From: Vitreimonas sp.
Lineage (GTDB): Bacteria > Patescibacteriota > Microgenomatia > UBA1400 > PJMF01
DNA length: 64,000 nucleotides
Assembly: GCA_035627515.1 (NCBI GenBank)
Contig: DASPLQ010000012.1
Location: 842,331-906,330, forward strand
Direction of reading: 5' to 3'
Part shown: positions 27,794 to 63,050 of the stretch, piece by piece
Position numbering within the stretch: position 1 is the first letter of the stretch
Layout of the letters: each line of letters starts with the position of its first letter
The notes under the pieces: model-generated
Told to the model about the DNA's origin: nothing
The model's input: the letters and a program-made list of their open reading frames with translations, nothing else
Database searches by the model: none
Position numbers and translations under genes: made by a program

Positions 27794-29053
27794 TTAAGAG
27801 TTATTTGTTGGTTGTGTAAAAAACCTGCCAATAGCCCACATTATCAAGCTAATTGGCACTGCTGACCAGGTGATCATTTTTTGATGAAGCAAGACGCTGC
27901 CATCGAAGTTGCCGGCGTGGAAGTATGGTATGTATCGGTATAGCGAGGTAACTGAAAGCGTGATCAAGAAAATACTCCACCAGCGCGTCAGCTGAAATAA
28001 GGGTTTAGGAGTGGTTAAACTAGGGAAAAACGGCAGCCAGATGAGTGTCCAGGTCAAATACCAGGGGTGGAACTGTTGGGAGCGTAAGGTCAGGAGCGGG
28101 ATAAACATCAGTACGGAAGCCGCCACAGGCCACCAGGGTAAAAGAGATTTAAACGGCAGATTCTTGAAAAAGCTGCTGAGTAACAAGATGATCCAGATTG
28201 GAATCAAGACAATTGTAGCAAGTTTCATCGAGATGGAAAAAGCTAAGAGAACGATAGAAGCCAGAATTTTGAGCGCAGACGCAGTGAAATTTTTCTTGTT
28301 GAGACCAGTTAAAAGCAACAGTGAGCTAAGAGCAGGGACCATCATCCACAGGTCGTTATGAGAATTTGTGATGATCTCGAGGAGGACTAAAGGATTAAAG
28401 AGTACTATACAGATCCGCAAAGCATTTTCACTCTTTTTTAGGTACATCCACGCCAACAGCCACAGGCTGACCAAGCTAAAACCTCTAAACAAGAACCAAG
28501 TCAGCAGAAATTTCTCTTGACCAAGGTAGTACGGGATCAGGGACAAAGCTGTCCAGCCATAACCATATGGAGCTGGCGTGTGCGTGTTGTGCATAAACCG
28601 CGTCCAGTCATCATAGTAGTAATCCAAAGCCACTTTGACGTGGGGATTAGCCTGGTAGACTGCCACCATTTTGGCGTTAAAAATATAATTAAAAACGTCA
28701 TAAGACAGGGCATTATTAGCGAAAAGCAGAGGCAGAGTAAACAGACAGTAAGCTGAAAAAAGGAAGTATTTTGAGTAATTAAGTAATCGAGTCCGCCAGC
28801 TGGCGGATGAGTAATTGAGTGAATATATCAACCAGAAGTAACTTAGCCAGAGCGTGGATATTAAAGCTGCATAGGTTGGGATCAGTAGCTCACGATCATT
28901 GAAGAAGGTTTTCCACATGTACAGCTGGAAGCGCCAGTACGGAGTCCAGGAAGTCAGGATCAGATTAGGAGCGGTAAGGCTGTAAGAGAAAACGACGTAA
29001 ACCAGCAACAGAGCAAAGTAAAGACCGAGGCAGAAAATGATTTTTTTGCTCAT
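27794..29053 (-). CDS. Polytopic membrane protein (419 aa), GT-C-like (GT87/DUF2029-like?)
   Basis: ~10 TM segments; conserved-looking loop DYYYDDWTRFMHNTHTPAPYGYGW. Confidence 0.4.
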   Translation of the reverse strand: MSKKIIFCLGLYFALLLVYVVFSYSLTAPNLILTSWTPYWRFQLYMWKTFFNDRELLIPTYAALISTLWLSYFWLIYSLNYSSASWRTRLLNYSKYFLFSAYCLFTLPLLFANNALSYDVFNYIFNAKMVAVYQANPHVKVALDYYYDDWTRFMHNTHTPAPYGYGWTALSLIPYYLGQEKFLLTWFLFRGFSLVSLWLLAWMYLKKSENALRICIVLFNPLVLLEIITNSHNDLWMMVPALSSLLLLTGLNKKNFTASALKILASIVLLAFSISMKLATIVLIPIWIILLLSSFFKNLPFKSLLPWWPVAASVLMFIPLLTLRSQQFHPWYLTWTLIWLPFFPSLTTPKPLFQLTRWWSIFLITLSVTSLYRYIPYFHAGNFDGSVLLHQKMITWSAVPISLIMWAIGRFFTQPTNNS

Positions 29054-29061
29054 GAAGAAAT

Positions 29062-29829
29062 TTATCCGGCTTTTTTATAATGCCCCTGTAGGTCGGCTAA
29101 TCTTACCCGCAGGATATCTCGCAACATGCGCAGAGAGTCTTTGACCGGACTGACTCGATCAGTTTCATGGTGTTTCCAGAGGATAGGCACTTCTTTAATT
29201 TGGTAATCAAATTTGCGCGCTAAAAACAGCATCTCTACGTCAAAGGCGCCGGTAAAGGCATCGCTGCGTTCTTGTTGTCGACCATAGACATGGAGGCGGC
29301 TGAAAAGCTCAGTGGTGGCCTCAGATGAGAGTAACTTAAAGCCACATTGGGTGTCATAAATGCCAGGAACAGCAAGGAGTTGCACCAGCCAATTAAACCC
29401 CCGACCCATCAGGTGGCGGTACCACGGTTCATCATCGCGGTGTGCTCCGGAACCTTCCCGTGAACCAATCACAATTTCATATCCCTGAGTGGCATAGCTC
29501 ATCAGCTTTTCAACTTCAGACAGTGGAGTTGATTGATCAAAGTCAGTGAACAGGCGCCATTGACCTTGGGCAGCCAGCATCCCAGACTGCACCGTGGGAC
29601 CCTTCCCCGCATGTAGATTATCAAGTACGCGCACTTGAGCATGTTTTTTAGCAAAAGCTTGGAGGTGTTCTAGTGTGTTGTCACTCGATCCGTCATCGGA
29701 AAGAATGACTTCCCAAGTGTACGATTGCTTCTTGAGATAGTTCACCACTTCATCCAGGACGCCGCGCTCGAGGTTTTTACGCTCGTTGTAGGAAGGAATG
29801 ACGACGGAAAGAAAAGGAACTTTTGACAT
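29062..29829 (-). CDS. Polyprenyl-phosphate sugar synthase (DPM1/GtrB/ArnC-like GT2)
   Basis: LSVVIPSYNERKNL...ILSDDGSSDNT...GSREGSGA...YDTQCGFKLL are the hallmark motifs of dolichyl/undecaprenyl-phosphate glycosyltransferases. Confidence 0.85.
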   Translation of the reverse strand: MSKVPFLSVVIPSYNERKNLERGVLDEVVNYLKKQSYTWEVILSDDGSSDNTLEHLQAFAKKHAQVRVLDNLHAGKGPTVQSGMLAAQGQWRLFTDFDQSTPLSEVEKLMSYATQGYEIVIGSREGSGAHRDDEPWYRHLMGRGFNWLVQLLAVPGIYDTQCGFKLLSSEATTELFSRLHVYGRQQERSDAFTGAFDVEMLFLARKFDYQIKEVPILWKHHETDRVSPVKDSLRMLRDILRVRLADLQGHYKKAG

Positions 29830-29843: not shown

Positions 29844-31373
29844 TTAAGTCCTTCTAAATATAAGGATTTCTGGGCCGCCGTCAATACGAAACGTTTCTGA
29901 AGGCGTTTTGTTAGGAAAGATAACTATTTCATAAATCGGCAGATCCATGGGTTTGAGCAAGTGTTGTTCATTGATCACCACCAGGGTGGAAGCATCGCCG
30001 GCTTTTTCTGGAGCGAGAGGTGGGTGATCGGTGGTGGATAAGAAATAATAGTAGTTTTGGGCGTAAATATCTTTCGATTCAGATAACAGAATCACGGTGT
30101 ACGTTTCTTCCGGCTTGAGGTGGGTGACAATTTCTTCTGCCGTGTGGCGGATGTCGCGCACGGTCCAGTCCTGGCTCTGCGGTAGTTTAGGGAGATTAAT
30201 GGCAATAAAAATGATTAATAATCCACCAACTAGTAAACGGCCGGTGGTTTTTTGGGCTAGCCAATCACCCGCAATGCCATAAAGTAAAAAGGTGACAGGA
30301 AACAAATACGCAATATAGTGATGAAAGATGGTGTGTTCGTAGACAGCTGTGCCCATGATGCCGGTGAGTAAATAACTCGCCACTACAGCGTAGCCCACTC
30401 GACTGGACTTTGATTGATTGAAGTACTGGCGAATTACAATAGTGAGCAAGATAATCACAAAGACTGTATTAGCTGTCCGCTGATGGCCTAGATTATATTC
30501 AGCTAAAATGTGGAGCGAGCGACCATGAGTTTCACGCAGCACGCGGCCAATGCGGAGTGGTAGAGAGTCGTCATTGCTGACTTTAAAACTTTGTTCTTTG
30601 ACAAATAAGTTTTTGAAAGCTGTGGCATTCAACCAGTTGTGTTTGTAATCGAAGAGCATAAGTGGCGTGAGTGAGAGGGCAAAAACGATGATGGCTACCC
30701 CGGTGGCGGTTCCCAGTTTAACTACGGATGCCCAGCGAGGAGCTTTTTTGGAAGCTGGAGTGGTGGCAAGTTTCCAGGTTTGAAAAAGCCAGACTAAGCC
30801 GGCTCCGGCGCCTGCTAATAATGTCAGGTAATGGAGTTGGATTAAAATACTGAAGCAGATCGAGACTACTACCCAGTACCAAACATTTTTGGTGATAGCG
30901 CGGTGAGTAGCCCAGATCATGACCAATGATACTAAGGGGGCTGGGTTGGGGTTCCAGCTGAACCGCGTATACTCGATGACTACGGCTGCAAAAGTGTAGA
31001 ACATGGTTGCAATTAGCGCGGCTCGTTCACCAATTAATTCCTTGCCTAAGTAATACAGCAACCACACCGTGATAATCCCTAAACCCGCCACAGCGTAGAC
31101 AGGGCCCATCGGACTAGGATAGCTGAGCCATAAAAAAGGCATCATGAAGTAGTAATAAAAGGGACCCAGGTACATGTTGCCCACACTGGTGACTGGACCA
31201 ATAAAAACAGGGTCAAAGTTACGGAAAATATTGGCCACGATCAAGGCATCACGGCCTTGATCACCTTGAAACTGGAGGGTGTCGACTAAATTATAGAGGC
31301 GCAAAAAACTGGCTACGCTCAGCAGGATGATTAAAAAAACGTGGGTTAGGGTCAGCTTTTTCCACCAGGTCAT
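29844..31373 (-). CDS. ArnT/PMT-like GT-C membrane glycosyltransferase (509 aa)
   Basis: ~12 TM segments; first loop FQGDQGRDALIVANIF. Paralogous to 37222..38814, which has the SYDQGRDMYVL motif. Confidence 0.55.
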   Translation of the reverse strand: MTWWKKLTLTHVFLIILLSVASFLRLYNLVDTLQFQGDQGRDALIVANIFRNFDPVFIGPVTSVGNMYLGPFYYYFMMPFLWLSYPSPMGPVYAVAGLGIITVWLLYYLGKELIGERAALIATMFYTFAAVVIEYTRFSWNPNPAPLVSLVMIWATHRAITKNVWYWVVVSICFSILIQLHYLTLLAGAGAGLVWLFQTWKLATTPASKKAPRWASVVKLGTATGVAIIVFALSLTPLMLFDYKHNWLNATAFKNLFVKEQSFKVSNDDSLPLRIGRVLRETHGRSLHILAEYNLGHQRTANTVFVIILLTIVIRQYFNQSKSSRVGYAVVASYLLTGIMGTAVYEHTIFHHYIAYLFPVTFLLYGIAGDWLAQKTTGRLLVGGLLIIFIAINLPKLPQSQDWTVRDIRHTAEEIVTHLKPEETYTVILLSESKDIYAQNYYYFLSTTDHPPLAPEKAGDASTLVVINEQHLLKPMDLPIYEIVIFPNKTPSETFRIDGGPEILIFRRT

Positions 31374-31388: not shown

Positions 31389-32579
31389 TTATTTACTGGC
31401 CGGTTTTTTCCATACCAGCCGACTATACGCAAAGAAATTCCAAAACATGCCGATTAAAATACCCATCACGGCATAAACTAAACCAGTATCAATCGCCAGG
31501 TTAATAATGGGTAAGGTAAACAACGTAAACAAACCAATGCCTTTTTCACCCGCGGTGCTCAAAATGAATTGAATAATTAATGAGCCCATCGAAGCGATGT
31601 TGAATTGAACGAACTTACCAGGCAGCTGAATGGCAGACAGTTTGCGATCAGCAAACGTCCAGAGGTTATTCAAGATGAAGTTACTAATAATTGCTGTTTC
31701 AATACTCAGCAAAGTAGCCCACTGGAAGCCAGATAACCCCCAGCCCCCGTTGCCGGTCAAGGCACGGTAAAGCTGTAGTGAACTGAGCTGTATCAATGCC
31801 CCGAGGCCGCCCACTACCACAAACTTAAAGATGCGATGGTTTACGATTTCCTGGAGCCGAACTTTAAAAATGTAAATCAAAGTATTTTTGATATATTCGG
31901 GACCTAATTTGGATTGGCCAATCGTCCGGTCCACAAACTTAAATGGCACTTCAGCAACTTTAAAGCCTTTGCGGACTGTTTTGTGAAGGAAGCCAATTTG
32001 AAACGTGTAGCCACTGAAACGTTCAGAGTGAAGCTCGGGATGAACGGCTTCGTAGACCTGCCTGGTAATGGCGCGATAGCCTGCGGTCCAGTCGCGAATA
32101 CTGAAATCTGTAAAGACCAACATAATAATCAGGTTACCCACTTTACTAAGAAACTTGCGATGCCAACCCCAATCATCAGGAATGCCACCACCTTTGACAT
32201 ACCGAGAGCCTAATACCAAATCATACCCATCCTCAATTTTTTGCAGCAAGGCTGGGATTTTAGTTGGGTCGTGAGACAGATCAGCATCGAACTCGAACAC
32301 GACGTCAGCTTTAAGTTTGCCGAAAGCTTCAGCCATACCCTTGAGATAGGCGCCCCCTAAGCCGGCTTTATTAGGATTAATGACTAGGTGCAGATTTTTG
32401 TGTTTTTTCTGCAGTTGCTGGACGGTTTCGTACGTTTTATCTGGCGAAGTATCGTCCACTACCAAGATGTGCATGTCCCAGTTTTTGATGTTTTTGAAGA
32501 CATCTTGCAACACAGGGACAACCTTTTGGATGTTTTCTTTCTCATTATAAGTAGGAATGATGACAATGGCTTTTTTCAT
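31389..32579 (-). CDS. Polyprenyl-phosphate sugar synthase (GT2) fused to a C-terminal GtrA-like 4-TM domain
   Basis: N-terminus IVIIPTYNEKENI...VVDDTSPDKT...GSRYVKGGG...AGYRAI. C-terminus has 4 TM segments with a GtrA-like pattern (FKFVVVGGLGALIQL...). Confidence 0.85.
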   Translation of the reverse strand: MKKAIVIIPTYNEKENIQKVVPVLQDVFKNIKNWDMHILVVDDTSPDKTYETVQQLQKKHKNLHLVINPNKAGLGGAYLKGMAEAFGKLKADVVFEFDADLSHDPTKIPALLQKIEDGYDLVLGSRYVKGGGIPDDWGWHRKFLSKVGNLIIMLVFTDFSIRDWTAGYRAITRQVYEAVHPELHSERFSGYTFQIGFLHKTVRKGFKVAEVPFKFVDRTIGQSKLGPEYIKNTLIYIFKVRLQEIVNHRIFKFVVVGGLGALIQLSSLQLYRALTGNGGWGLSGFQWATLLSIETAIISNFILNNLWTFADRKLSAIQLPGKFVQFNIASMGSLIIQFILSTAGEKGIGLFTLFTLPIINLAIDTGLVYAVMGILIGMFWNFFAYSRLVWKKPASK

Positions 32580-32594: not shown

Positions 32595-33566
32595 TTATTT
32601 TTTACTCTCTGCTTCTAAATCAGCATTCACCATCAGCTCCACTAGTTGTGCAAAAGTAACGCTTGGTTTCCATCCTAATTTGGTTTGGGCTTTAGTAGGA
32701 TCCCCAATTAGGAGATCAACTTCTGCAGGGCGGTCGAATTTAGGATTGTGTTTATATACTGATTCCCAGTCCTTGATGCCAGCTGCCTCACAAGCTAATT
32801 GTAAGAATTCCCGGACAGAGTGGGTTTCGCCAGTGGAGATCACAAAGTCATCAGCTTGATCTTGTTGCAGCATCAACCACATCGCTTCTACATAGTCTTT
32901 AGCATAACCCCAGTCACGTTTGGCTTCGAGGTTGCCGAGCTCCACGTGTTGTTGTTTACCGAGTTTGACTCGGGCCACGGCATTGGTAATTTTGCGGGTC
33001 ACAAACTCTAAACCACGGCGTGGTGATTCATGATTAAACAAAATACCTGAGACGGCAAACATGTTGAATGACTCTCGATAATTGACAGTAATCCAGTGAC
33101 CATAGACTTTAGCCACACCATAGGGTGAACGAGGATAAAAGGGAGTACTCTCGGTTTGAGGTACTTCTTGGACTTTGCCAAACATTTCTGATGAACTGGC
33201 TTGATAAAACTTAGCTTGTGGACAGACGAGACGGACCGCTTCGAGCATCCGGGTGACGCCAATGGCAGTAAACTCACCGGTGAGCACGGGTTGATCCCAA
33301 CTTGTTTTGACGAAAGACTGAGCGGCTAAGTTATAGACCTCATCGGGTTGGACATCTTTGAGTGCCATGGTTAACGAGTGTTGATCCAACAAGTCACCTG
33401 AAATGAGCTCCAGATTAGGGTGATGGACAATTTGCTCAATTCGCTCGAAGTTTTGGGTACTCGTGCGACGAGTCAAACCGTAGACTTTGTAGCCTTTTTC
33501 GAGCAATAACTCTGCTAAATAGGAACCGTCTTGACCGGTAATACCGGTGATAAAAGCTTTTTTCAT
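32595..33566 (-). CDS. gmd: GDP-mannose 4,6-dehydratase
   Basis: [22 protein letters not shown]...[19 protein letters not shown]...[10 protein letters not shown] is the classic Gmd SDR signature. Confidence 0.93.
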
Positions 33567-34525
33567 GCTTGTTCTCTCCAATAACTGAGTACGCGTGATA
33601 ACGTTTGTTGCAGCGGAATACTTGGTTGCCATCCCAGCTTGGCAATTTTCCCATTATCCGCAATGATGATCGGAACATCAAGAGGACGAAGTTTGGTGGG
33701 GTCTGTTACGATCGGGACTTCAATCTGGGCCAGTTGGCGCATCATCTCTAAAACACTTGCCATTTGGTAACCTGTGCCACTGCCAATGTTGTATACCTCA
33801 CCAGCTTGACCATGAGCCATCAACAAGGCATAGGCTTTGACCATATCTTTGACATCAGTAAAATCACGGACGCCGCTCAGTTCGCCCACCCGAAGTTCAG
33901 CTTGCAAGCCGCGCTCGATGGCCACAATTTGTTTGGCAAAACTGGGGATCGAGAAATCGGGTGATTGGCGCTCGCCGATATGGTTAAAAGGTCGGGCGCG
34001 GACAATATCGAGTTTATATGACACCGTGTAAGTAAAGGCCAGTAAATCTTGTGAAACTTTAGAAACGGCATACGGATTAGCAGGATTAAGCGGAAACTCT
34101 TCATTAATTTTTTGACCAGGTTGGAGAGTGAGTACGCCATATTCTTCGGCACTGCCTATGACTAATAACCGGGCTTGAGGAGTATGAAGCCGAGTGGCTT
34201 CGAGGACATTGAGTTGTAACGTGATGTTATTTTGTAAAACTGATTTGGCTTTCTCGAAACTGTTGCCCACTACCGCAAAAGAGGCCAGGTGGTAAATATG
34301 AGTAGGTTGTAGTTCTTGCCAGAGGTGGTTAACAGCTGCTGTATCAGTTAGATCGAGAGTATGAATCTGGGCAGTGGGGTGAGGAGGATTGACTTGAGCA
34401 CCAAAACTAGTGACGTGAAGATTAGTAAAACCTTGAGCTGTGAGTTCTTCAACTAAGTGTGAGCCCGCAAAGCCAGTGCCACCAGTAATTAAAATCGTTG
34501 GTTGAGTCTCGATTGCAGTCTGCAT
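33563..34525 (-). CDS. rmd: GDP-4-keto-6-deoxy-D-mannose reductase (Rmd-like)
   Basis: [14 protein letters not shown] Rossmann motif. YAVSK active site. [50 protein letters not shown] closely matches the Rmd family as I recall it. Overlaps gmd by 4 bp. Confidence 0.75.
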
Positions 34526-41638: not shown

Positions 41639-41808
41639 TTATTTTTGAGTTGTGGCTGTTGCTGAGCACCTTTTAATTTATAAAAATTATTACGCCATGA
41701 TTGAGCGGCACTGTGATAATAGCCGGCTGCTAAAGCCAGGACAACAATGATAATGACGAGTAAGCGCGTCACATTTTGGGCAGAGAGTGGTGGTTTAATT
41801 GTGGACAT
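41635..41808 (-). CDS. Possible small single-TM protein (57 aa), below the ORF-track size cutoff
   Basis: Hand translation: MSTIKPPLSAQNVTRLLVIIIVVLALAAGYYHSAAQSWRNNFYKLKGAQQQPQLKNN*. Overlaps the LCP stop and the octamer repeat. Speculative. Confidence 0.25.
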   Translation of the reverse strand: MSTIKPPLSAQNVTRLLVIIIVVLALAAGYYHSAAQSWRNNFYKLKGAQQQPQLKNN

Positions 41809-53752: not shown

Positions 53753-53791
53753 TATTAACCATATTCTAGCCCTTTCAGGTATAATACGTCT

Positions 53792-54706: not shown

Positions 54707-54715
54707 CCCTGCTTT

Positions 54716-55528: not shown

Positions 55529-56634
55529 AAATCTGTCTATATTCTCCTTATGTTCCTAAACACGTAGGTGGTGGTGAAAAGTATTTTTTCGATGTGGCGC
55601 GCTTGTTAAGTACTGAGCATAGGGTACAAGTTGCTATCCCACATTTTGAGGGCACACCTAAAGCTATTCAAGCAGTCCGCGAAAAATATGAACAGTTTTT
55701 GGGTCAATCATTGGCTAAAATAGAATTTATTTCCACTCCTTTGAATACAACTGCCCCCTGGTGGTTAAAAATAGCCTGGACGCGACAATTTGATGTTTTA
55801 TATTACTTAACTGATGGGAGTTTGTTTTTTTCGTTAGCCAAAAGAAATATTTTGCACATCCAAATTCCTTTTACGACACCAAAAACTAGTTTTAGTGATC
55901 GAATGAAATTACAAAATTGGCAAGTTAAAAATACTAACTCTGCTTTCACCAAAAAAATAATTGAAAAAAACTGGCACACTAAAATTGACGTCGTGCACTG
56001 GCCTATGGTAGATGTGGGCAGCGAGCTAAAGGCGGCAGGACTAAAAAGTGATCATAAACAAAAAGTGATTTTGCATGTCGGGCGGTTCTTCCGTCAGTTA
56101 CATTCTAAGCGCCAAGACGTACTCGTGAATATTTTTAAAGAGTTACTTACTCTTTATCCTCAGCAAACGAAAGGTTGGAAACTGGTTTTAGTTGGGGCTG
56201 TCGAGGATGAAGCCTATGCTGCGGAAGTCAAAAAACGTAGTCAGGGCTTGCCAGTAGAAATGTATCATAATTTGAATCGACAAGAGTTATTAGAGTGGTA
56301 TGCTAAAGCTAGCATCTATTGGCACGCAACTGGTTTCGGTTGTGATGAGCTGGCTGAGCCGGAAAAAATGGAACATTTTGGGATTAGCACTGTGGAGGCA
56401 ATGGCAGCCGGGTGTATCCCGATTGTGATCAATAAAGGTGGTCAGCCAGAAGTGTTGGGTGAATCATTAGCTTCTGGTCTGTGGAATGATGAAAGTGAGT
56501 GCATAGCTAAAACCATCACGGTTATACAAAATGAGGCATCGCAGACTATTTTGAAAAAAGCTGCTCGTGAGCAGGCAGCAACTTTTGGATCAGCTCAATT
56601 TATAGACACATTACAAAAAATGATCACATCATAA
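55525..56634 (+). CDS. Family 4 (GT-B) glycosyltransferase
   Basis: EHFGISTVEAMAAGCIPIV is the EX7E retaining-GT motif. 369 aa. Confidence 0.85.
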   Translation: MKICLYSPYVPKHVGGGEKYFFDVARLLSTEHRVQVAIPHFEGTPKAIQAVREKYEQFLGQSLAKIEFISTPLNTTAPWWLKIAWTRQFDVLYYLTDGSLFFSLAKRNILHIQIPFTTPKTSFSDRMKLQNWQVKNTNSAFTKKIIEKNWHTKIDVVHWPMVDVGSELKAAGLKSDHKQKVILHVGRFFRQLHSKRQDVLVNIFKELLTLYPQQTKGWKLVLVGAVEDEAYAAEVKKRSQGLPVEMYHNLNRQELLEWYAKASIYWHATGFGCDELAEPEKMEHFGISTVEAMAAGCIPIVINKGGQPEVLGESLASGLWNDESECIAKTITVIQNEASQTILKKAAREQAATFGSAQFIDTLQKMITS

Positions 56635-56635
56635 T

Positions 56636-57511
56636 ATGGCTAAATACTTAAAAGTTTCAGCTGTCATTCCCACCTACAATGGTCTTCATTTATTGAGAAA
56701 AAACTTGTCTGCGGTATTAGAGTGTTTACGACCAAATGATGAGTTGGTTATCGTAGATGATGCCAGTAACGATGAGACTCTAGAGTGGCTGAAGCATAAA
56801 TTTGGTTTAGCGACTGCGACCGCAGTCATCACTGGCGCAGATCTTTCAGAAGGTATGTATCGTCAGGGCCAAAAAAAAGTAGTGGTAAAAGTTGTAGCTA
56901 ATCATCAGAACCAGCGATTTGCGGTGAGTTGTAATCGTGGGGTGGCGGCTGCCACACACCCAATTATTTTTGTACTCAACAATGATGTCAGTCCCTATCC
57001 CGATGTTATTAAACAGGCCCTACCTCACTTTCAAGATCCAGAAGTTTTTGCCGTGGGTTGTTTAGAACATGAGCAAGCTGAGGGGGAAGTAGGTGGTAAG
57101 AATCGTCTCTGGTTTGAACGTGGCTTATTTCGCCATGCCCGAGCCAGCGATTTTAGCACTGGACCCACAGCCTGGGTGAGTGGTGGGAGTGGCTTCTTTG
57201 ATCGTGAGAAATGGCTACAATTAGACGGCTTTGATCCGCGATATTATCCTGCCTATTGGGAAGATACCGACCTTTCATTTAGGGCTCGGCAACAAGGTTG
57301 GAAAGTGGTCTTTGATGCTCAAGCTCAAGTTGACCACAACCATGAAAGCACGAATCAGACCACGTTTGGTAAGCAACACATTATGAAGATGAGTTGGCAG
57401 CACGCTCACATATTCACTCGACAGCACGCAACATGGTGGCAATTAGTACAATACGGAGTGTGGTTCCCTTATAACTGGTGGCATTTTCAACAATTGATGC
57501 GACACGTTTAG
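56636..57511 (+). CDS. Family 2 glycosyltransferase
   Basis: VSAVIPTYNGLHLLRKNL...LVIVDDASNDET...VLNNDV...YWEDTDLSFRA. Confidence 0.85.
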   Translation: MAKYLKVSAVIPTYNGLHLLRKNLSAVLECLRPNDELVIVDDASNDETLEWLKHKFGLATATAVITGADLSEGMYRQGQKKVVVKVVANHQNQRFAVSCNRGVAAATHPIIFVLNNDVSPYPDVIKQALPHFQDPEVFAVGCLEHEQAEGEVGGKNRLWFERGLFRHARASDFSTGPTAWVSGGSGFFDREKWLQLDGFDPRYYPAYWEDTDLSFRARQQGWKVVFDAQAQVDHNHESTNQTTFGKQHIMKMSWQHAHIFTRQHATWWQLVQYGVWFPYNWWHFQQLMRHV

Positions 57512-59580
57512 TTGGTAGGCTGACCAATAATCTCGGCTGCAGTCTGGGGAATAATCACGTCCACTCCGGCTTCAGGATTTTTTTCAAAGATGACGACTTC
57601 ATTATTAGGCTCAAGCTGAGGTTGTGGGAGATGCACGATTTTACCACCGGGTTTGGCAGAAAGTTCAGGATGCTCGCTAATTAAGCGAGTGATATAGGCC
57701 TCTTGGTTAGCTTTTAATACTTCTGGGCTAAAGATACGATGTGGCCGAGTAATAATTTTGACACTAGCAAAACCTTTCAGCTGGTCAAGTTTACTTTGAT
57801 TATATTTTTGAACCACAAAACCAATAGGAATCGGTTCACTGCCGATGCTGCTGACCAGTAATCTTTCTTCCAAATTAACTTCAGATTGCCCGGTTAGTTC
57901 ACCTAATAATTTGAGAAATTCCGGGGTATTAGTCATTAATTGAGGTGTGACTAAAATGAAAGGATGATCATTGACGGCCGAGAGTGTTAACTTATCACTA
58001 GTACTCAGTACACCGCTGGGCGCATAGGCTTCTCGTAACTCAACTTTACTTTGCGCTGTAAAGTGTGGCACTACCATCTCCCAATCCCATTGCCAATACC
58101 AGTAGTTATTGCGCCTCGTCAGTATGACTGGACTGTAAGTAGTAATTTCACCAATTGGAGTTTGAAAACGAGTGGTGATGTTAGTAGCGACTTGATTTTG
58201 CCACGGCCAGACTCTGGGTAAATTGAGCTCAGCTGAGCGCGTACTGACTTGAAGCTCGCCTTCGAATTTCTTGAGAGTTAAGAAAAAATCTCGCCGGGTA
58301 GGTGGAGATTCCGCAGGCAAACTCAAAAAAGAATAAACGTCTTGATAATGTCCCCGATTCCAGTTTTGGATTGCAAACGGTAAGTTGGTTTGTGGCCGCG
58401 CGGGTAAAAACCAGAAGGCTTGGACAATAATTAAACCAATTATGAGCTGATGGAGTGGTTTCTTCCCTTGTAGATGTGGTACCAAAAAGATAATCATCAG
58501 AGGGAGTATCACTAAGAAGTAGCGCGCCCAAAACGGAGTCAGACTTTGAAGGCCTAAGATACCTAAAGTTATTAAGGCTACATAATCTAGTGAGGGCGAG
58601 AGGGTTTTCGGACGTGACACCACTCGCCTGTGGACCCATACCAGCATTGCAACTAGACTAAGTGGCCACAAAATACTCCATTCCTGAATACTTTCCCAAT
58701 TGGAAGTGTTCCACCACCCTACGTAATGTCCGGTTAAGGTACTAAACCAGACCATCAAAGGGACGGTTTTAATTCCTGATTGGGCATAAAAGTTAATCAT
58801 CCATTTTTGTGTTCCAATCCACTCGAGCAAGGTGTGGCCAGATAAGAAATATGACCAGTACAAGGCTAAATATGTCAGTCCGGCAATGGCTAAAATACTG
58901 AACCACTCTAACCAGCGTTTTCGGCCCAGCATCCATCCAGCGGCTAGCACTAGAACAGGAACATACAGCGGTGCTTTGGTAGCGGTAAAAAGTCCAAGGC
59001 CGACCCCAGCTCCAATTACTAACCACCCGGTTTGAAGCGTTCGCGTTTTGACATTAAGTAATAAGGTGAGACAAGTACTATGAATTAATAGAGCTAATAA
59101 AAGTGGTAAATCCATCATGGTCTGTGATAGCTGGGAGAAAAAAAGAGGAGTAATAGCTAACAGCCCTACAGCCAGCCAGACTTGCTGATCAGTATGAAGC
59201 AGTGCTCGACATAAGCAGTAATAACAGCCTAACGCAATCATAAACATCATTAACGATGCCCAGTAAGGGTTGCCTAGCCATGTGGCAGCGAGGCCATAGG
59301 CCCATTTTCCAAAAGGAGGAACTTCAGGATTAGTGGTAAAGTAATCCTGCTGATTCACTAACCGATATCCAGCCACTTGATAGAGCTCATTATCAGAAAT
59401 GATACGTGTACTCAAGGGAATTCGCCATTGTGATTGATCATAGAGATCTGACAGGTAGGAATATTCGAAAGGTTGAACAAAGACTCGACGACTAGCAATG
59501 ACCACTAGCGCAAGCCATGCCACCAACAAAAACCACCGCAGTTTATACCACATAGCTACCTTTATACCGTGTTTCCCCAA
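57508..59580 (-). CDS. PMT/ArnT-like GT-C membrane protein with a ~300-aa C-terminal extracytoplasmic domain (690 aa)
   Basis: EVPPFGKWAYGLAATWLGN resembles the PMT hPPhGK loop. ~11 TM segments, then a hydrophilic C-terminal domain. Confidence 0.5.
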   Translation of the reverse strand: MGKHGIKVAMWYKLRWFLLVAWLALVVIASRRVFVQPFEYSYLSDLYDQSQWRIPLSTRIISDNELYQVAGYRLVNQQDYFTTNPEVPPFGKWAYGLAATWLGNPYWASLMMFMIALGCYYCLCRALLHTDQQVWLAVGLLAITPLFFSQLSQTMMDLPLLLALLIHSTCLTLLLNVKTRTLQTGWLVIGAGVGLGLFTATKAPLYVPVLVLAAGWMLGRKRWLEWFSILAIAGLTYLALYWSYFLSGHTLLEWIGTQKWMINFYAQSGIKTVPLMVWFSTLTGHYVGWWNTSNWESIQEWSILWPLSLVAMLVWVHRRVVSRPKTLSPSLDYVALITLGILGLQSLTPFWARYFLVILPLMIIFLVPHLQGKKPLHQLIIGLIIVQAFWFLPARPQTNLPFAIQNWNRGHYQDVYSFLSLPAESPPTRRDFFLTLKKFEGELQVSTRSAELNLPRVWPWQNQVATNITTRFQTPIGEITTYSPVILTRRNNYWYWQWDWEMVVPHFTAQSKVELREAYAPSGVLSTSDKLTLSAVNDHPFILVTPQLMTNTPEFLKLLGELTGQSEVNLEERLLVSSIGSEPIPIGFVVQKYNQSKLDQLKGFASVKIITRPHRIFSPEVLKANQEAYITRLISEHPELSAKPGGKIVHLPQPQLEPNNEVVIFEKNPEAGVDVIIPQTAAEIIGQPTN

Positions 59581-59625: not shown

Positions 59626-61314
59626 ATGATAAATGAGTTGCAAGCTATGTTACGAGCTTTTTTTACTAAACAGTGGTATTACATTTTGATAGCAGCTATT
59701 GTTGTGGTAGCTGCAGGACTCCGCTTTTATCAACTAGGAGGAGTTCCTCACGGAATGACATGGGATGAGGCTGCCATTGGTTACAATGGATACGCCGTTA
59801 TTTCCACGCGGCGTGATGAGTGGCTGGTGAAGTTGCCGGTGTCGTTTAAGTCTTTTGGTGATTACAAAGCGCCCTTAGCCATTTATATCAATGGCTTTTT
59901 TACCTATGCCCTAGGTATGGAGTTATGGGTGGTGAGATTGCCTTTTGCTTTAGCTGGAGTGATGGCAGTGCTAGGGATGATATTGTTAGTGGAAAAGATC
60001 TGGCAAGATGTTGATGAACCTCGAGCACGCTTAGTAAGCTTGTTGGCTGGAGTAGGACTGGCTTTTTCACCGTGGCATTTGCACTTTTCCCGGGTGGGTT
60101 TCGAATCAGCAATGGCTTTAAGTTTTCTCATTTGGGGCATCTATTTCCTCATGAAAATGGTGAACGAATCTAAAACGGTCTTGAAATACTTGTGGATGAT
60201 GAGTACGGCGGTGATGCTGGTTGCCAGTATTTATACCTATCACAGTGCCAAGCTAGTTGTACCCTTGGTGACAGCGCTTATTCTCTTCTGGCAGCTACGA
60301 AAAGCTCTCAAAAACGTAGTCTTATTAGGTGTCACTGGAGCGCTATCGACAGTCATGTTATGCCCACTGCTAAGTGATTTATTGTGGGCTAGCGGTAGCG
60401 AGCGATTTCATCAAGCTACACTGTTTAATAAAGGCTATGAAGTTTCACAATTATTGTCAGTCCTGATAGCTCATTTTGTAGCACATCTTGATCCGCGATT
60501 TTTAGTTTTAGGCAAAACTGATACGTTACGGCATGGTGATGGAGTATGGGGAATTTTGTTACCAACTACTTTCACATTGGCCCTGATAGGGTTGGCGTTT
60601 TTAATATTTTATACTCTGAAAAGCACAGTTGAAAAGAAAGCACATTCATATAAACAACTCTTATGGTTAGGATTAGGTTGGGCAATAATTGGCATTGTTC
60701 CCGCTATGCTCGGCGTTGATGCCCCGCATAGTAATCGGGCTTTGCTCGCACTACCCGGATTTTTATTGTTAGCACTGGGGGGTCTAGTGATGATCACTGA
60801 GGGTATTAAAAATTCTCAGCTTAATAAAAATATTCAGGGAACACATGGTGAAAAGAATATGGTTCTCAAAGCAGTTATTGGCGGTATAGTTTTGGTTCAT
60901 AGTTTATTTGTTCTCAGTTACTTGCAGCATTACTATACGGCTTTTGCTGCCCAATCTGCGGATGACTTCAAAGATGGGTATCTTGAAACCTTGCGATATG
61001 TTATTCCTTATGAGAAGGGTCTCGAGCGGCGACCCAAAGTCGACCAAATTTTATTTACCAATAAATATGGTCAACCCTATATTTATACATTGTTTGCTCG
61101 TCGTACCAATCCCATTTGGTATCAAGGCGGAGTATTAAACACGTATTTATTTACCGACTTGATCAGGCCCAGTGATTTAGAGCGACCAAATACCCTGATT
61201 GTAGCTGCTGCTGATGATCCATTACCGATCGAGAAAGCTGAAAAAATTGTGTATGGAAGTGATGGCAAAGTGAAGTTTAAAATTTATTATACTGGTTCAT
61301 CTTTCTTACCATGA
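59626..61314 (+). CDS. PMT/ArnT-family glycosyltransferase (562 aa)
   Basis: MTWDEAAIGYNGYAVISTRRDEWLVKLPVSFKSFGDYKAPL is a DE loop paralogous to 50228, 61311 and 48435. Confidence 0.7.
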   Translation: MINELQAMLRAFFTKQWYYILIAAIVVVAAGLRFYQLGGVPHGMTWDEAAIGYNGYAVISTRRDEWLVKLPVSFKSFGDYKAPLAIYINGFFTYALGMELWVVRLPFALAGVMAVLGMILLVEKIWQDVDEPRARLVSLLAGVGLAFSPWHLHFSRVGFESAMALSFLIWGIYFLMKMVNESKTVLKYLWMMSTAVMLVASIYTYHSAKLVVPLVTALILFWQLRKALKNVVLLGVTGALSTVMLCPLLSDLLWASGSERFHQATLFNKGYEVSQLLSVLIAHFVAHLDPRFLVLGKTDTLRHGDGVWGILLPTTFTLALIGLAFLIFYTLKSTVEKKAHSYKQLLWLGLGWAIIGIVPAMLGVDAPHSNRALLALPGFLLLALGGLVMITEGIKNSQLNKNIQGTHGEKNMVLKAVIGGIVLVHSLFVLSYLQHYYTAFAAQSADDFKDGYLETLRYVIPYEKGLERRPKVDQILFTNKYGQPYIYTLFARRTNPIWYQGGVLNTYLFTDLIRPSDLERPNTLIVAAADDPLPIEKAEKIVYGSDGKVKFKIYYTGSSFLP

Positions 61315-63050
61315 GTAAGCATCTTTTTTCTATTGCGCTAAGCTTGATCCTGTTGGGAGCAGTATTTTTGAGACTTTATAGATTAGACTCACTGCCAGCT
61401 TCACTATATTGGGAAGAAGCGGCATTAGGTTATGACGCTTACTCGATGTGGCAAACGGGTCGTGATCATCATGGTAATGCCTGGCCGATAGTAGCCTTTG
61501 AATCATTTGGCGACTACAAACCAAGTCTCTATTTTTATGCCATTGTGCCGTTTGTGGCCACTCTAGGTCTTAATGAGTGGGCTGTTCGGTTACCTTCAGC
61601 TGTAGCAGGCATGGCCACTGTCGTGGCCGTGGGTTTAATTGCTCAACTCTTAGCAAAAAAATGGTTTTCGAATTCTAAAGCTCAATACTTATTATTAATC
61701 GCAATGGCAGTAGCTGGTATTTCACCGTGGGCGTTGGTTTTTTCTCGTGGGGGCTGGGAAGTCAACTTAGCGACTGCTTTGATCAGCTGGGGGATGTATT
61801 GTGGGTTGCGTTATGAGTCACAGTTGAGAGAAGTAAAAGGGACTGACCTTAAGTGGCTGGTGGGCAGTGTCATAGCTTTAGTCTTATCAATGTATGCCTA
61901 TCATGCCACCCGGTTGCTTGCACCATTACTTGGTATGTGTTTAGTGATGATGTGGAGTGCAACTGTGTTGAGCAATAAAACGAGTAGGTCATTAGCTATG
62001 ATAGCTAAACAGTGGTTAATAGCTGGTTTATTGAGTGTCTTATTATTAATGCCGATTCTTAGTTCTTTAGGCAATCAAAGCACATCTCAACGTTTTGCCG
62101 AAACCAGCATTTTAAATGATGTGACCTTTGTAGAGGAAAGTAATCTCAGACAGGAGCGAGCCGGCCACACCTTAGCCAGTAAACTTCTTTATCATCGTTA
62201 CTGGTTTTATGGCAAAGCCATTGCACTTAATTATTTTTCGCACCTCTCTATAGATTTCATGTTTGTGGCAGGTGATGCAAATCCGCGGCACTCAGTACAA
62301 TTTTTTGGGCAGCTCTATCATATTGAATTTATTTTTTTGTTAGCAGGAATCTATGTTGCTATTCGGAAGGGTGATAGGTATAGCTGGTTATTATTTGGTT
62401 GGTTAGTATTAAGTATCTTACCGGCCGCGATCACTAAAGCATCTCCACATGCTTTGCGCATCTTGCCGGGTTTACCAGTGTGGTTAGTACTGATTTCGGT
62501 AGGCATTGTTGAGTTGCACACGTATGTGGTTAATGGTCTTCAGGGTTTATTGAAGTCATGGAGAATTAAAAAAATCACACTTGCTTTAGGCCTAGGTGCA
62601 GCAATTGCCGTGTTATACCTGATTGAACTCACTGTTTTTTGGCGTTTTTATTCAAAAGTCTATGCTGTCATTTATGCCAGTGAGTGGCAGTATGGATACG
62701 AACAAATGGTACAAGCGGTCAGCCGCTCACAATTAGCCAATGATCAGTTGCCCGTTTATATTACACGCGAACAAGGCCGGCCAGCAATGTATTATTGGTT
62801 CTACACTCAAGCCAATCCGGCTAAAGTTCAAGCAGCTGATGCCGCTGCTAAACAAGACCAAGGTGAGTATATCGAATTTGAAAATATTAAGTTTCCTAAT
62901 ACCGTTAATGAAGTGGGTAACTCCCCAGCTATAGTAGCTTCTTCCCAAGAAGGTTTTACACAACTCTCATCACGCCATCGCGTGGAAGTGATAGAAGAAG
63001 TTAATGATTTGCGAGGCAAGACGGTGTGGGTAGTGTATAAGATTCTTTAA
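61311..63050 (+). CDS. PMT/ArnT-family glycosyltransferase (579 aa)
   Basis: LYWEEAALGYDAYSMWQTGRDHHGNAWPIVAFESFGDYKPSLYFY. 4-bp overlap with the upstream paralog. Confidence 0.7.
   Translation: MSKHLFSIALSLILLGAVFLRLYRLDSLPASLYWEEAALGYDAYSMWQTGRDHHGNAWPIVAFESFGDYKPSLYFYAIVPFVATLGLNEWAVRLPSAVAGMATVVAVGLIAQLLAKKWFSNSKAQYLLLIAMAVAGISPWALVFSRGGWEVNLATALISWGMYCGLRYESQLREVKGTDLKWLVGSVIALVLSMYAYHATRLLAPLLGMCLVMMWSATVLSNKTSRSLAMIAKQWLIAGLLSVLLLMPILSSLGNQSTSQRFAETSILNDVTFVEESNLRQERAGHTLASKLLYHRYWFYGKAIALNYFSHLSIDFMFVAGDANPRHSVQFFGQLYHIEFIFLLAGIYVAIRKGDRYSWLLFGWLVLSILPAAITKASPHALRILPGLPVWLVLISVGIVELHTYVVNGLQGLLKSWRIKKITLALGLGAAIAVLYLIELTVFWRFYSKVYAVIYASEWQYGYEQMVQAVSRSQLANDQLPVYITREQGRPAMYYWFYTQANPAKVQAADAAAKQDQGEYIEFENIKFPNTVNEVGNSPAIVASSQEGFTQLSSRHRVEVIEEVNDLRGKTVWVVYKIL

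Follow-up and report, generated by a model that had tools for sequence, protein, structure and literature searches.

The 27794–63050 region (~35 kb) contains nine genes for GT-C-type membrane glycosyltransferases, accompanied by sugar-donor enzymes. With a probability of roughly 0.55, it is a cell-envelope glycan locus whose product would be a wall-linked glycopolymer made inside the cell, flipped, extended or decorated outside by the GT-C enzymes, and ligated by a LytR-CpsA-Psr (LCP) enzyme. In this tiny Patescibacteria (CPR) genome, genes for at least nine membrane sugar transferases that depend on lipid carriers are crowded into 35 kb, in an array that is a variant of known systems. The features of the window (the whole 64-kb stretch of DNA analyzed) are listed in table 1, and genes are named below by their first coordinate.

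Table 1. Features discussed in the text, by position in the 64-kb window
Position	Strand	Feature	Evidence or remark
8569..10659	+	Multi-pass membrane protein	possibly GT-C-like or other lipid-linked-glycan enzyme (candidate)
17267..18571		LTD protein, Pro/Ser/Thr-rich	one stretch 65% Pro/Ser/Thr
18738..22922	+	1394-aa membrane giant	~11 N-terminal TM helices, ~900-aa external region, C-terminal TM
22874..24061	-	GT2 (EpsE/TuaG-like), upstream of array	Pfam GT2 E 1.4e-34; EpsE 118 bits, below cut-off
27794..29053	-	GT-C, ALG3/PIG-M/PimE type, 419 aa	last gene of minus-strand operon 35853 to 27794
29062..29829	-	Soluble GT2, polyprenyl-phosphate-sugar synthase-like, 255 aa	Pfam Glycos_transf_2 E 4.6e-23
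29844..31373	-	GT-C, PMT_2 family, DQGRD subfamily (B1)	PMT_2 31.3 bits, GA 26.1
31389..32579	-	Full-length DPMS-type polyprenyl-phosphate mannose (hexose) synthase	GT2 domain + GtrA/DPMS TM domain
32595..33632	-	GDP-mannose 4,6-dehydratase (gmd)	TIGR01472 442 bits (cut-off 415); GDP_Man_Dehyd 2e-137
33563..34525	-	SDR-family nucleotide-sugar dehydratase/epimerase/reductase	Pfam Epimerase/GDP_Man_Dehyd
34540..35853	-	UDP-glucose/GDP-mannose 6-dehydrogenase	three UDPG_MGDP_dh domains, E 1.6e-63, 4e-33, 8e-25
37222..38814	-	GT-C, DQGRD subfamily (B2)	BLASTP to 29844 E 1.7e-21
38741..39631	-	dTDP-4-dehydrorhamnose reductase (rmlD-like)	RmlD_sub_bind E 1.2e-48
40013..40540	-	dTDP-4-dehydrorhamnose 3,5-epimerase (rmlC-like)	dTDP_sugar_isom E 1.5e-18
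40556..41575	-	NDP-sugar 4,6-dehydratase (rmlB-like)	Pfam GDP_Man_Dehyd/Epimerase
41795..42955	-	LCP glycopolymer-to-peptidoglycan ligase	LytR_cpsA_psr E 3.9e-31, above GA
45169..46947	+	GT-C, C45 family, conserved HD motif after TM1	hhalign to families A, B
46934..48433	+	Wzx/MOP-family flippase	Polysacc_synt_3 E 8.4e-48; Polysacc_synt E 3.7e-17
48435..50225	-	GT-C family A, divergent paralog (A48), HDE loop	BLASTP to other family A
50228..51982	+	GT-C family A (A50), IDE loop	PMT_2 41.3 bits, above GA
51975..52892	+	Cytoplasmic GT2 (g2a)	Pfam GT2 E 1.3e-13
53792..54706	+	Cytoplasmic GT2 (g2b)	Glyco_tranf_2_3 E 2.3e-22
54716..55528	+	Cytoplasmic GT2 (g2c)	Pfam GT2 E 2.3e-15
55525..56634	+	GT4 (GT-B fold) glycosyltransferase (g4)	Glycos_transf_1 E 1.8e-19
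56636..57511	+	Cytoplasmic GT2 (g2d)	Pfam GT2 E 1.7e-21
57508..59580	-	GT-C-like (P57), SDNELY loop invariant	hhalign to family B 92.5%, E 5e-7
59626..61314	+	GT-C family A, conserved anchor paralog (A59), WDE loop, C-terminal alpha/beta domain	AF2 + Foldseek
61311..63050	+	GT-C family A (A61), WEE loop	BLASTP to 59626 E 5e-49

All open reading frames listed in the initial annotation of this DNA were recovered in place. The source organism is represented by a metagenome-assembled genome only. GT-C membership was assigned from structural models (59626 and 27794), from PMT_2 scores above GA (29844 and 50228), and from BLAST or hhalign comparison (the other five), the calls for 48435, 61311, and 57508 coming solely from homology to other paralogs. 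PMT_2 was the only Pfam family above threshold among the GT-C paralogs, and Pfam searches returned no match of their own for 48435 and 57508.

The four family A proteins (48435, 50228, 59626, and 61311) are true paralogs (21–31% identity, BLASTP E 4e-7 to 5e-49), as had been proposed, and 48435 matches the other three at 4e-10, 7e-10, and 4e-7, respectively. However, the signature previously given for them, [LW][DE]EA..GY, fits only two of the four exactly: the motifs just past TM1 are HDEIIY (48435), IDEAHFGY (50228), WDEAAIGY (59626), and WEEAALGY (61311). The DE pair of 48435 is kept in 16 of 16 orthologs, and orthologs of 61311 have EE in 55 cases and DE in 42. Foldseek comparison of the AF2 model of 59626 (pLDDT 92, pTM 0.92) with the PDB gave ArnT as the best match (5ezm, E 5e-9), followed by AglB/STT3, Pmt4, ALG9/12, and Emb; relatives of this protein are present in 180 species-representative genomes. 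Both family B proteins carry the reported DQGRD motif, at residue 38 in 29844 and residue 61 in 37222, and are paralogs with 27% identity (BLASTP E 2e-21), the PMT_2 score of 37222 being only 16.6 bits and below GA. Families A and B are linked by hhalign (97.9%), the first D of DQGRD aligning with the D of WDE.

The GT-C nature suggested earlier for 27794 and 45169 was borne out. The fold of the 27794 model matches ALG3, PIG-M, and PimE, whereas 45169 is joined by hhalign to family A (95.3%, E 2.4e-8) and family B (95.9%), with weak Pfam matches to GT-C_AftD and PTPS_related and invariant H31/D32. Similarly, 57508, described as PMT-like with a C-terminal domain, is GT-C-like by its alignment to the 29844 family and by the PMT_2 domain of its homolog P0124; it has a C-terminal extracytoplasmic region of ~300 aa, a weak MecA_N/NTF2-like match (residues 404–508), and invariant columns including D63/L66/Y67. 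The initial annotation had named assignment to other families, or an inactivated catalytic loop, as grounds against its reading. All nine genes keep their GT-C family assignment, and neither ground applies: no paralog has lost the acidic first-loop motif, and orthologs retain it as well, a pattern of sequence that argues for catalysis by these proteins.

The two DPM1-like GT2 enzymes were both supported. The match of 31389 to Pyrococcus furiosus DPMS (PDB 5mlz, E 6.9e-44) spans residues 3–341 and thus extends from the Pfam GT2 domain into the C-terminal TM region called GtrA_DPMS_TM (residues 252–390). Its DADLSH motif matches DADLQH of PfDPMS (PMC5526996). On these alignments, what had been described as a GtrA fusion is the normal archaeal-type DPMS architecture. 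The top matches of 29062, which has a DFD motif and no TM domain, mix polyprenyl-P-sugar synthases with other GT2 enzymes: the best in PDB were DPMS 5mlz (5e-15), ArnC, and GtrB-like sll0501, and the best in NCBIfam were PgfS, ArnC, Dol-P-hexose transferase, and PpgS, all under their cut-offs. PgfS was the top NCBIfam model for both enzymes (62–76 bits, cut-off 500). Each gene is directly upstream of a GT-C gene (31389 before 29844, 29062 before 27794), and the four lie in one tightly packed minus-strand run.

The Wzx flippase, the LCP ligase, the GT4 enzyme, and six GT2 enzymes (29062, 31389, 51975, 53792, 54716, and 56636) were also confirmed. A seventh GT2, 22874, lies upstream of the array. 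In NCBIfam, 33563 matched LegB, RmlB, GalE, and Fcl, each under cut-off, and g2b weakly matched rhamnosyltransferase and GlfT1. The best ortholog of 40556 among related loci has 69% identity (L041). The 64 kb showed neither a recognizable phosphoglycosyl transferase for initiation (of the WecA/TagO or WbaP type) nor rmlA nor a Wzy-type polymerase.

Synteny of the cluster extends over 83 loci in related genomes, representing dozens of species, with the recurring order rmlB-LCP-C45-Wzx-GT2-GT2-GT2-GT4-GT2-A59-A61. In the 42 fully flanked loci the median number of GT-C genes is 7 per 21.6 kb, and most of these loci contain C45 (41/42), g2a (40/42), g2b (40/42), g2c (41/42), g4 (39/42), and g2d (29/42). 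In relatives the LCP gene is next to the 45169 ortholog and Wzx, and rmlB-LCP adjoins the cluster in several loci; LCP was inside the 10-kb flank in only 8 of the 42, a count which may partly stem from limited flank length. One half of the cluster is conserved (C45, Wzx, g2a, g2b, g2c, g4, g2d, A59, and A61) and the other is variable (extra A61, A50, A48, B1, B2, P57, and 8569-type genes), which suggests a common backbone with species-specific decoration. The A61 subfamily is tandemly duplicated in relatives, with a mean of 2.24 copies per related locus. Considering that the same cluster occurs in dozens of related species, it is probably the standard cell-wall sugar-polymer machinery of the lineage and not a one-off expansion. 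The expansion had been called extreme; it is indeed large relative to most bacteria, but it is typical of, and conserved throughout, this Patescibacteria (Microgenomates/Pacebacteria-like) lineage and no outlier.

The analysis showed which folds and families the proteins have, that their catalytic motifs are intact, that GT2 genes are paired with GT-C genes, and that the cluster is conserved across species; from this a possible pathway can be outlined. Nucleotide sugars would be made in the cytoplasm, with RmlB, RmlC, and RmlD performing dTDP-rhamnose steps, Gmd and the SDR protein providing GDP-mannose derivatives, and the dehydrogenase a uronic acid. Four GT2 enzymes and the GT4 enzyme would assemble a lipid-linked glycan at the inner face of the membrane, and the Wzx-type protein would flip this glycan or polyprenyl-P-sugars. 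31389, a full DPMS homolog, and 29062 would load polyprenyl phosphate with single sugars, which at least nine GT-C enzymes may use in lipid-linked form on the outer face to extend and/or decorate the polymer, each adding its own particular residue or linkage, and the LCP enzyme would ligate the polymer to peptidoglycan. What we infer here is in which order the steps occur, which sugars are used, whether the acceptor is a polymer or a protein, and how the paralogs divide the labor.

Three-component systems are known for Gram-positive wall polymers (CsbB/GtcA/YfhO, GacI-J/GacK/GacL, and L. lactis CsdAB/CD/EF), and the Wzx-type flippase GacK works with the GT-C enzyme GacL in such multi-component transmembrane glycosylation (PMC8035078). 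Our locus shares their plan, with a GT-A/GT2 enzyme for synthesis of a polyprenyl-P-sugar, a flippase of GtrA or Wzx type for its translocation, and a GT-C enzyme for transfer on the outside, as well as the adjoining GT2 and GT-C genes and the associated rhamnose-pathway and LCP genes. On the other hand, it has nine or more GT-C genes instead of one to three, its GtrA-type domain is part of a DPMS-like synthase, its families A, B, C45, and P57 have no close characterized member and are mostly under Pfam thresholds, and its host has a ~1.4-Mb Patescibacteria genome. In mycobacterial arabinogalactan/LAM assembly, cytoplasmic WbbL/GlfT GT2 steps are followed by the GT-C enzymes EmbA/B/C, AftA-D, PimE, and MptA/B, which use decaprenyl-P-sugars. 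Ligation by Lcp1 comes next (PMC4981717). Similarly, many GT-C paralogs would act here after a cytoplasmic GT2-built, rhamnose-containing primer, next to a Ppm1/DPMS-type polyprenyl-P-sugar synthase and an LCP ligase, and Emb, AftB, AftA, AftD, and PimE are among the structural matches of the modeled GT-Cs. However, a sequence-level relationship to Emb or Aft proteins is absent, arabinose (DPA) pathway genes were not seen in the locus, and the proteins are smaller, except the 1394-aa giant (GT-C nature unproven).

With ArnT (GT83) and PMT (GT39), the array shares the GT-C fold, the D-E pair opening the first external loop, and a C-terminal extracytoplasmic domain, besides the PMT_2 scores of 29844 and 50228. 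In contrast, comparison with the solved ArnT and PMT proteins, family profile included, detected no similarity in sequence, Pfam searches of all paralogs detected no MIR domain, and the genes lie in a polysaccharide locus rather than in one for modifying lipid A or beside no partners, as a solitary Pmt would. Streptococcal GT2/GT-C pairs (Pgf, GtrB/PgtC2) O-glycosylate Ser/Thr-rich protein regions (PMC12041528). The pairing of a PgfS-like GT2 with a GT-C acting outside the membrane is similar, but the streptococcal GT-Cs are YfhO-type, a Pfam match found for none of ours, adjacent adhesin genes are absent here, and both GT2 enzymes fall far short of the PgfS cut-off in NCBIfam.

Since PMT_2-type GT-Cs include true protein O-mannosyltransferases and the streptococcal pairs glycosylate proteins, some or all paralogs could act on proteins. 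It is conceivable, though we would not expect it, that their main role is protein O-glycosylation, as for bacterial Pmt or streptococcal PgtC/PgfM. They would then be supplied with polyprenyl-P-sugars by 31389 and 29062 and target secreted or membrane proteins (pili, adhesins, or the LTD protein) at stretches rich in Ser/Thr/Pro. PMT_2, alone in passing threshold, is named for protein mannosyltransferases, Pmt4 and Pmt1/2 are among the structural matches, the DAD motif of the DPMS-type synthase implies a polyprenyl-P-mannose donor (cf. actinobacterial Ppm1/Pmt), and PgfS belongs to a protein O-glycosylation pathway (PMC12041528). Nevertheless, 59626 is structurally closer to ArnT and OST than to Pmt, the MIR domain is missing, and known O-mannosylation systems need one or two GT-Cs rather than tandem arrays of 5–9. 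The initial annotation pointed to Pro/Ser/Thr-rich surface proteins encoded nearby as possible targets, and to peptidoglycan-linked glycopolymers; the LTD protein, with its rich stretch, is the only Pro/Ser/Thr-rich protein among window ORFs of at least 150 aa. Moreover, the conserved cluster around the paralogs also contains four GT2 genes, one GT4 gene, and the Wzx, LCP, and rml genes, as is typical of polysaccharide loci, and because of this synteny the gene content favors a peptidoglycan-linked glycopolymer over protein O-mannosylation.

It appears unlikely that the acceptor of the GT-Cs is a membrane lipid or a lipid-anchored glycan (lipoglycan, LTA- or LAM/LM-like) instead of a peptidoglycan-linked polymer, in the manner of ArnT with lipid A or of PimE/MptA/MptB with PIMs, LM, and LAM. 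ArnT is the top Foldseek match of 59626, and CPR bacteria generally have no lipid synthesis of their own and depend on remodeling the lipids that they scavenge; yet the acceptor is not predictable from fold similarity within GT-C, sequence-level similarity to ArnT or PimE is lacking, and the LCP ligase adjoining the cluster points to peptidoglycan attachment. It is quite doubtful that a substantial fraction of the paralogs are Wzy/WaaL-like polymerases or ligases for flipped repeat units, or non-catalytic acceptor-binding partners like PIG-U. The preserved acidic loop, which argues for catalysis, and the two dedicated polyprenyl-P-sugar synthases, each adjoining a GT-C gene, speak against such roles, and the WaaL match to 59626 is marginal (E 0.33), although Wzx is present with no Wzy or ligase of this kind recognized, and OSTs, which transfer whole oligosaccharides, rank high for 59626. 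Small GT-Cs have also been speculated to need partner proteins (PMC8035078).

8569 and the 1394-aa giant, counted earlier among the GT-Cs, are unproven members: neither has a match in Pfam, NCBIfam, or PDB, and hhalign gave 72% to family B for 8569, confined to C-terminal helices, and only 53% to family A for the giant. Relatives of 8569 comprise 775 representative clusters at E<=0.001 (DUF6541 matched by 2 of 36 relatives), and in some related loci (L001-L003) its ortholog is within the cluster, adjoining Wzx. The giant has 12 metagenome relatives, with complete ORFs of 1290–1369 aa and YLMGWDN conserved past TM1; its layout resembles that of AftD.

Finally, the 3-bp head-to-head spacing at the 50225/50228 junction was rejected as an artefact, because it depends on a TTG start of 50228 picked by the longest-ORF rule, and ortholog alignments begin only downstream of it, at residue 22–28. 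A mis-called start, one of the two alternatives offered in the initial annotation, explains this junction best. In-frame ATGs are present at 50234 and 50264, and judging from the alignments translation of 50228 probably begins at ATG 50264 (or 50234), the gap between 48435 and 50228 likely being ~38 bp.

Every open reading frame (ORF) listed in the initial annotation is present, and all-against-all BLASTP supported its grouping of the GT-C candidates: the proteins encoded at 48435, 50228, 59626 and 61311 form one family (family A, E-values of 4e-7 to 5e-49), and those at 29844 and 37222 a second (family B, E-value of 2e-21). The acidic motif (DxD, DE, DD or a variant) expected of the GT-C superfamily in the first extracytoplasmic loop after the first transmembrane (TM) helix was found in these proteins and in those at 45169, 57508 and 27794. 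In families A and B it is located just past the first TM helix; in 27794 it lies at residue 119, past several helices, and its assignment to this loop is putative. In the hhalign comparison, the Asp of WDE in family A is paired with the leading Asp of the family B motif DQGRD. The DE pair is kept in 69 of 83 orthologs of the 59626 type, 16/16 of the 48435 type and 27/28 of the 50228 type; in the 61311 type, 97 of 136 orthologs have either EE or DE. No HMM placed these proteins in an unrelated family, and their acidic loops are conserved in orthologs rather than inactivated. This conservation of the catalytic motifs also led us to reject pseudogenization of the paralogs.

Features of the window, with coordinates (gene start or range), strand and acidic loop motif of the GT-C proteins
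Position	Strand	Feature	Motif
8569-10659	+	Membrane protein, plausible GT-C
10656-16536	-	Six ABC2_membrane_6 permease genes
12271-13281	-	ABC ATPase among the permease genes
16573-17358; 26411-27211	-; +	HU-type DNA-binding protein, VanZ-like protein, weak sigma-70 region-4 match
17267-18571	-	Pro/Ser/Thr-rich protein, 434 aa
18738		1394-aa membrane protein, plausible GT-C
27794	-	GT-C candidate	SYDVFNY
29062	-	Soluble GT2
29844	-	GT-C, family B	DQGRD
31389	-	DPMS-like GT2
35886		trmD
37222		GT-C, family B	DQGRD
39637-40113	-	ORF, 158 aa
41795		LCP protein
43062-43943	+	Soluble protein
43918-45141	+	Soluble protein, paralog of 43062
45169		GT-C-like	HD
46934		Wzx/MOP flippase
48435	-	GT-C, family A (ATG start at 50225)	HDEIIY
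50228	+	GT-C, family A	IDEAHFGY
51975		GT2 (g2a)
52898-53821	-	Orphan ORF, 307 aa
53792		GT2 (g2b)
54716		GT2 (g2c)
55525		GT4 (g4)
56636		GT2 (g2d)
57508		GT-C-like	SDNELY
59626		GT-C, family A	WDEAAIGY
61311		GT-C, family A	WEEAALGY

To Pfam family PMT_2 (PF13231, GA 26.1 bits), 50228 (41.3 bits) and 29844 (31.3 bits) score above the threshold, 59626 (19.7) and 37222 (16.6) score below it, and no match was found for 48435, 61311, 57508, 45169 or 27794; many orthologs of 59626 have a precomputed PF13231 match. Pfam at E ≤ 0.01 gave nothing for 48435, 61311, 57508, 27794, 8569 and 18738, and only a weak GT-C_AftD match for 45169. An NCBIfam search of ten membrane proteins returned nothing useful, nor did PDB searches with the single sequences of 50228 and 29844 and with profiles of family A, the 45169 and 27794 families and 8569 return anything meaningful. 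Solved GT-Cs are linked to these proteins by fold comparison only. The AF2 models of 59626 (32-sequence alignment; pLDDT 92, pTM 0.92) and 27794 (pLDDT 90.5) each contain about 12–13 long helices, and a crude count of hydropathy peaks ranged from 5 to 11 across the nine GT-C proteins, which we took to be polytopic (at least eight TM helices). When the 59626 model was compared with the PDB using Foldseek, 19 GT-C chains were matched at E ≤ 1e-3, with ArnT as the best hit (E = 5e-9), followed by archaeal AglB, STT3, Pmt4, ALG9/12 and Emb, indicating three-dimensional similarity to the superfamily. This predicted resemblance to ArnT (GT83) is confined to the fold level: phmmer and profile hmmsearch against all PDB sequences, ArnT included, detected no homology at E ≤ 1, and there was no NCBIfam ArnT match.

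The 27794 model had no significant Foldseek match; we assign the protein to GT-Cs of the ALG3/PIG-M/PimE type. Homologs of 27794 have a precomputed match to Pfam family PF26314, which was not part of the Pfam set searched here. The other seven genes are tied to the superfamily by BLAST and hhalign only. Using family alignments from related loci (a single sequence against a profile is uninformative), hhalign gave 97.9% for family A versus B, 95.3% and 95.9% for the 45169 family versus A and B, and 92.5% (E = 5e-7) for the 57508 family versus B; one 57508 homolog carries PMT_2. Together, the fold evidence and profile links indicate that nine genes over 27794–63050 are GT-C or GT-C-like. No further paralogs were found among the window ORFs by hmmsearch with the family HMMs. 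The lumenal MIR (beta-trefoil) domain that eukaryotic PMT (GT39) has between TM helices was not matched by Pfam in the paralogs, with the cut-off relaxed to E ≤ 10; since bacterial Pmt is not known to have a MIR domain either, this excludes the eukaryotic PMT architecture only.

Two upstream membrane proteins, 8569 and 18738, had also been counted as GT-Cs, which is plausible for both, although hhalign similarity is weak and neither matches a family. An exhaustive HMMER search recovered 775 representative relatives of 8569; the one family annotation among them was DUF6541, matched by 2 of 36 relatives, and its weak hhalign match to family B (72%) covers the C-terminal helices only. In the 18738 protein, some 11 TM helices at the N-terminus are followed by an ectodomain of ~900 aa and a C-terminal TM helix, a layout which we take to resemble that of AftD and which offers a lead; it had no Pfam match at E ≤ 10 (GT-C_AftD, PF11847, included), no PDB match, and only 53% in hhalign against family A, and so was not identified as AftD. 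Its complete metagenome relatives are 1290–1369 aa long and have YLMGWDN after the first TM helix in common. In this genome 8569 directly follows the ribosomal protein S9 gene. Its orthologs (35–38% identical) adjoin Wzx in three related loci (L001–L003; L001:261–2324, L002:1734–3761), a site which here holds the divergent 48435/50228 pair, indicating that the locus has been rearranged.

The matching polyprenyl-phosphate-sugar synthases were examined by domain and structure searches. The 31389 protein matched the Pyrococcus DPMS structure 5mlz over residues 3–341 (E = 6.9e-44), has Pfam GT2 and GtrA_DPMS_TM (residues 252–390) domains, and shows DADLSH at the place of the catalytic DADLQH of PfDPMS; it therefore combines a GT-A domain bearing a DAD motif with a C-terminal GtrA/DPMS-type TM domain. 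The GtrA domain that had been read as a fusion is present, but because the 5mlz match extends into this membrane domain and the DADLSH motif is in place, it represents standard DPMS architecture rather than an unusual fusion. On the other hand, 29062 is a soluble GT2 with a DFD motif and no TM domain, whose best PDB and NCBIfam matches are DPMS, ArnC, GtrB-like proteins, PgfS and Dol-P-hexose transferases. The minus-strand run reads dehydrogenase, SDR, gmd, 31389, 29844, 29062 and 27794, with neighbors 8–15 bp apart or briefly overlapping; the gaps within the last four are 8–15 bp, and these four form two synthase-to-GT-C pairs. Based on the adjoining DPMS-like and ArnC/GtrB-like genes, the GT-Cs are predicted to use polyprenyl-phosphate-linked donors on the non-cytoplasmic face. 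Three relatives of 59626 (L010, P0078 and P0096; about 820 aa) contain GT2 Pfam domains, P0078 together with PMT_2, and such naturally fused GT2–GT-C proteins support the view that the two kinds of enzyme work together.

The other predicted glycan genes were also recovered: LCP (PF03816, 108.7 bits versus a threshold of 24.6), the Wzx/MOP flippase (Polysacc_synt/Polysacc_synt_3, 163.5 bits versus 23; 12 hydropathy peaks), and four further GT2 and one GT4 over 51975–57511. In addition, gmd exceeds its NCBIfam equivalog cut-off, and rmlB-, rmlC- and rmlD-like genes are supported by Pfam. An initiating phosphoglycosyl transferase, rmlA and Wzy were not recognized in the window. The gap between rmlD and rmlC is filled by the ORF at 39637, which has no Pfam match and shares ~100 bp with the 3′ end of rmlC.

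Relatives of family A were sought in genomes representing one species each and were detected in 180 of them; 83 loci (80 from this survey and three by exact-protein look-up) were analyzed. The recurrent order is (rmlB-LCP-) C45 (the 45169 family), Wzx, g2a, g2b, g2c, g4, g2d, 59626-type and 61311-type genes, followed by a variable tail of more 61311-type, 50228-type, 48435-type, family B, 57508-type or 8569-type genes. Forty-two loci had full flanks; of these, 39–41 carry each of g2a, g2b, g2c and g4, 41 carry C45 and 37 the 61311 type (mean 2.24 copies), and each variable gene is present in 7–18. These loci contain a median of seven GT-C genes per 21.6 kb (range 1–9) and the window has six in the equivalent 18 kb, implying that it is typical. 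Thus, the abundance of GT-C genes described as an extreme expansion is real, but it is conserved across the lineage rather than exceptional to this window.

Co-location of a GT2 polyprenyl-phosphate-sugar synthase, a GtrA/Wzx-type flippase and a GT-C transferase is similar to multi-component transmembrane wall-polymer glycosylation (PMC8035078), and the many GT-Cs are reminiscent of how mycobacteria assemble arabinogalactan/LAM before ligation by LCP (PMC4981717). Our favored explanation, to which we assign a probability of roughly 0.55, is that the locus makes a peptidoglycan-linked heteropolysaccharide, part of which would be built in the cytoplasm, with the GT-C paralogs then lengthening or decorating it on the outside; we infer all functional steps of this pathway. 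A bolder version, which we consider doubtful, regards the GT-C array as an arabinogalactan-style extracytoplasmic assembly line instead of a set of side-chain decorators. The main wall polysaccharide of these Microgenomates/Pacebacteria would then be polymerized outside the membrane from polyprenyl-phosphate monosaccharides by successive GT-C paralogs, the conserved half (C45 and the 59626 and 61311 types) building a common core and the variable half (extra 61311-type, 50228-type, 48435-type, family B, 57508-type and 8569-type genes) making species-specific surface glycans. If so, these glycans might mediate host attachment or phage evasion in ultrasmall episymbionts.

The main rival, which we regard as unlikely for the locus as a whole, is protein O-glycosylation as in actinobacterial Pmt or streptococcal Pgf/PgtC2 (PMC12041528), although some of the GT-C paralogs may act in this way. 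Several Pro/Ser/Thr-rich surface proteins had been suggested as nearby targets; among window ORFs of at least 150 aa, one such protein was found, at 17267, and not several. Pfam matches the Lamin Tail Domain twice in this protein, and Pro/Ser/Thr make up 65% of a 60-residue segment; it is a candidate O-glycosylation substrate.

Patescibacteria have tiny genomes that lack many biosynthetic pathways, and most are host-attached, their surface, whose chemistry is very poorly characterized, being the contact site with hosts and phages. Retention of five to nine lipid-carrier-dependent GT-C genes, donor synthases and a wall ligase in such a lineage suggests that an elaborate surface glycan is important to the organism. 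Under the heteropolysaccharide reading, the conserved-versus-variable layout predicts a shared backbone with species-specific decoration, and the locus offers a concrete gene set with predicted conserved catalytic residues for testing. The enzyme classes and logic are already known, and some members are labeled "glycosyltransferase family 39" in databases; families A and B and the 45169, 57508 and 27794 types have no characterized member. A full-text literature search found no paper joining Patescibacteria/CPR with GT39, GT83, PMT_2 or ArnT-type enzymes, and the pattern thus appears undescribed in the literature searched. In two recent Patescibacteria papers the term "glycosyl" is absent, though one of them mentions putative genes for making an extracellular polysaccharide.

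The start codons of 48435 and 50228 had been placed head to head, 3 bp apart. This spacing rests on a TTG start for 50228 under the longest-ORF rule only; in-frame ATGs occur at 50234 and 50264, orthologs align from residues 22–28 on, and one begins at the equivalent of about residue 21. A later start is therefore favored, and that at 50264 would put the two genes about 38 bp apart. Three other genomes keep the divergent pairing, and their gaps are comparably short. A promoter and terminator scan at 50225/50228 detected nothing, including any sigma-70-like promoter; the two promoters probably overlap coding sequence or are atypical.

The first 8.5 kb encode SecY, adenylate kinase, methionine aminopeptidase, IF-1, ribosomal proteins S13, S4, L17, L13 and S9, and RpoA; with trmD further on, this indicates ordinary chromosome. 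A phage or plasmid origin was set aside since such housekeeping genes flank and interrupt the region. Named relatives of 59626 (45–55% identity) are all Patescibacteria (Pacebacteria/Paceibacterota, Woesebacteria, Microgenomates), some records being titled "Pseudomonadales". We take the source to be a Microgenomates-type CPR bacterium. The NCBI label "Vitreimonas sp." of the source MAG and "uncultured Pseudomonadales" of many related MAGs look like taxonomic mislabels, in view of the gene content and the other relatives. No tRNA or Rfam elements were found in the 64-kb window.

The soluble paralogs at 43062 and 43918 (26% identity, E = 2e-21, ADADTIH motif in both) lie between LCP and 45169, a spot that is empty in relatives; neither has a Pfam match, and the 83 related loci contain no homolog of them. 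Most related loci have g2a next to g2b; here the ORF at 52898, on the opposite strand, lies between them. This ORF likewise has no Pfam match and no homolog in related loci, and comparison showed that it is not related to the 43062/43918 pair. The genes at 16573 and 26411 separate the ABC transporter array from the glycan genes. This array, directly after 8569, may export glycans or lipids, or may be unrelated.
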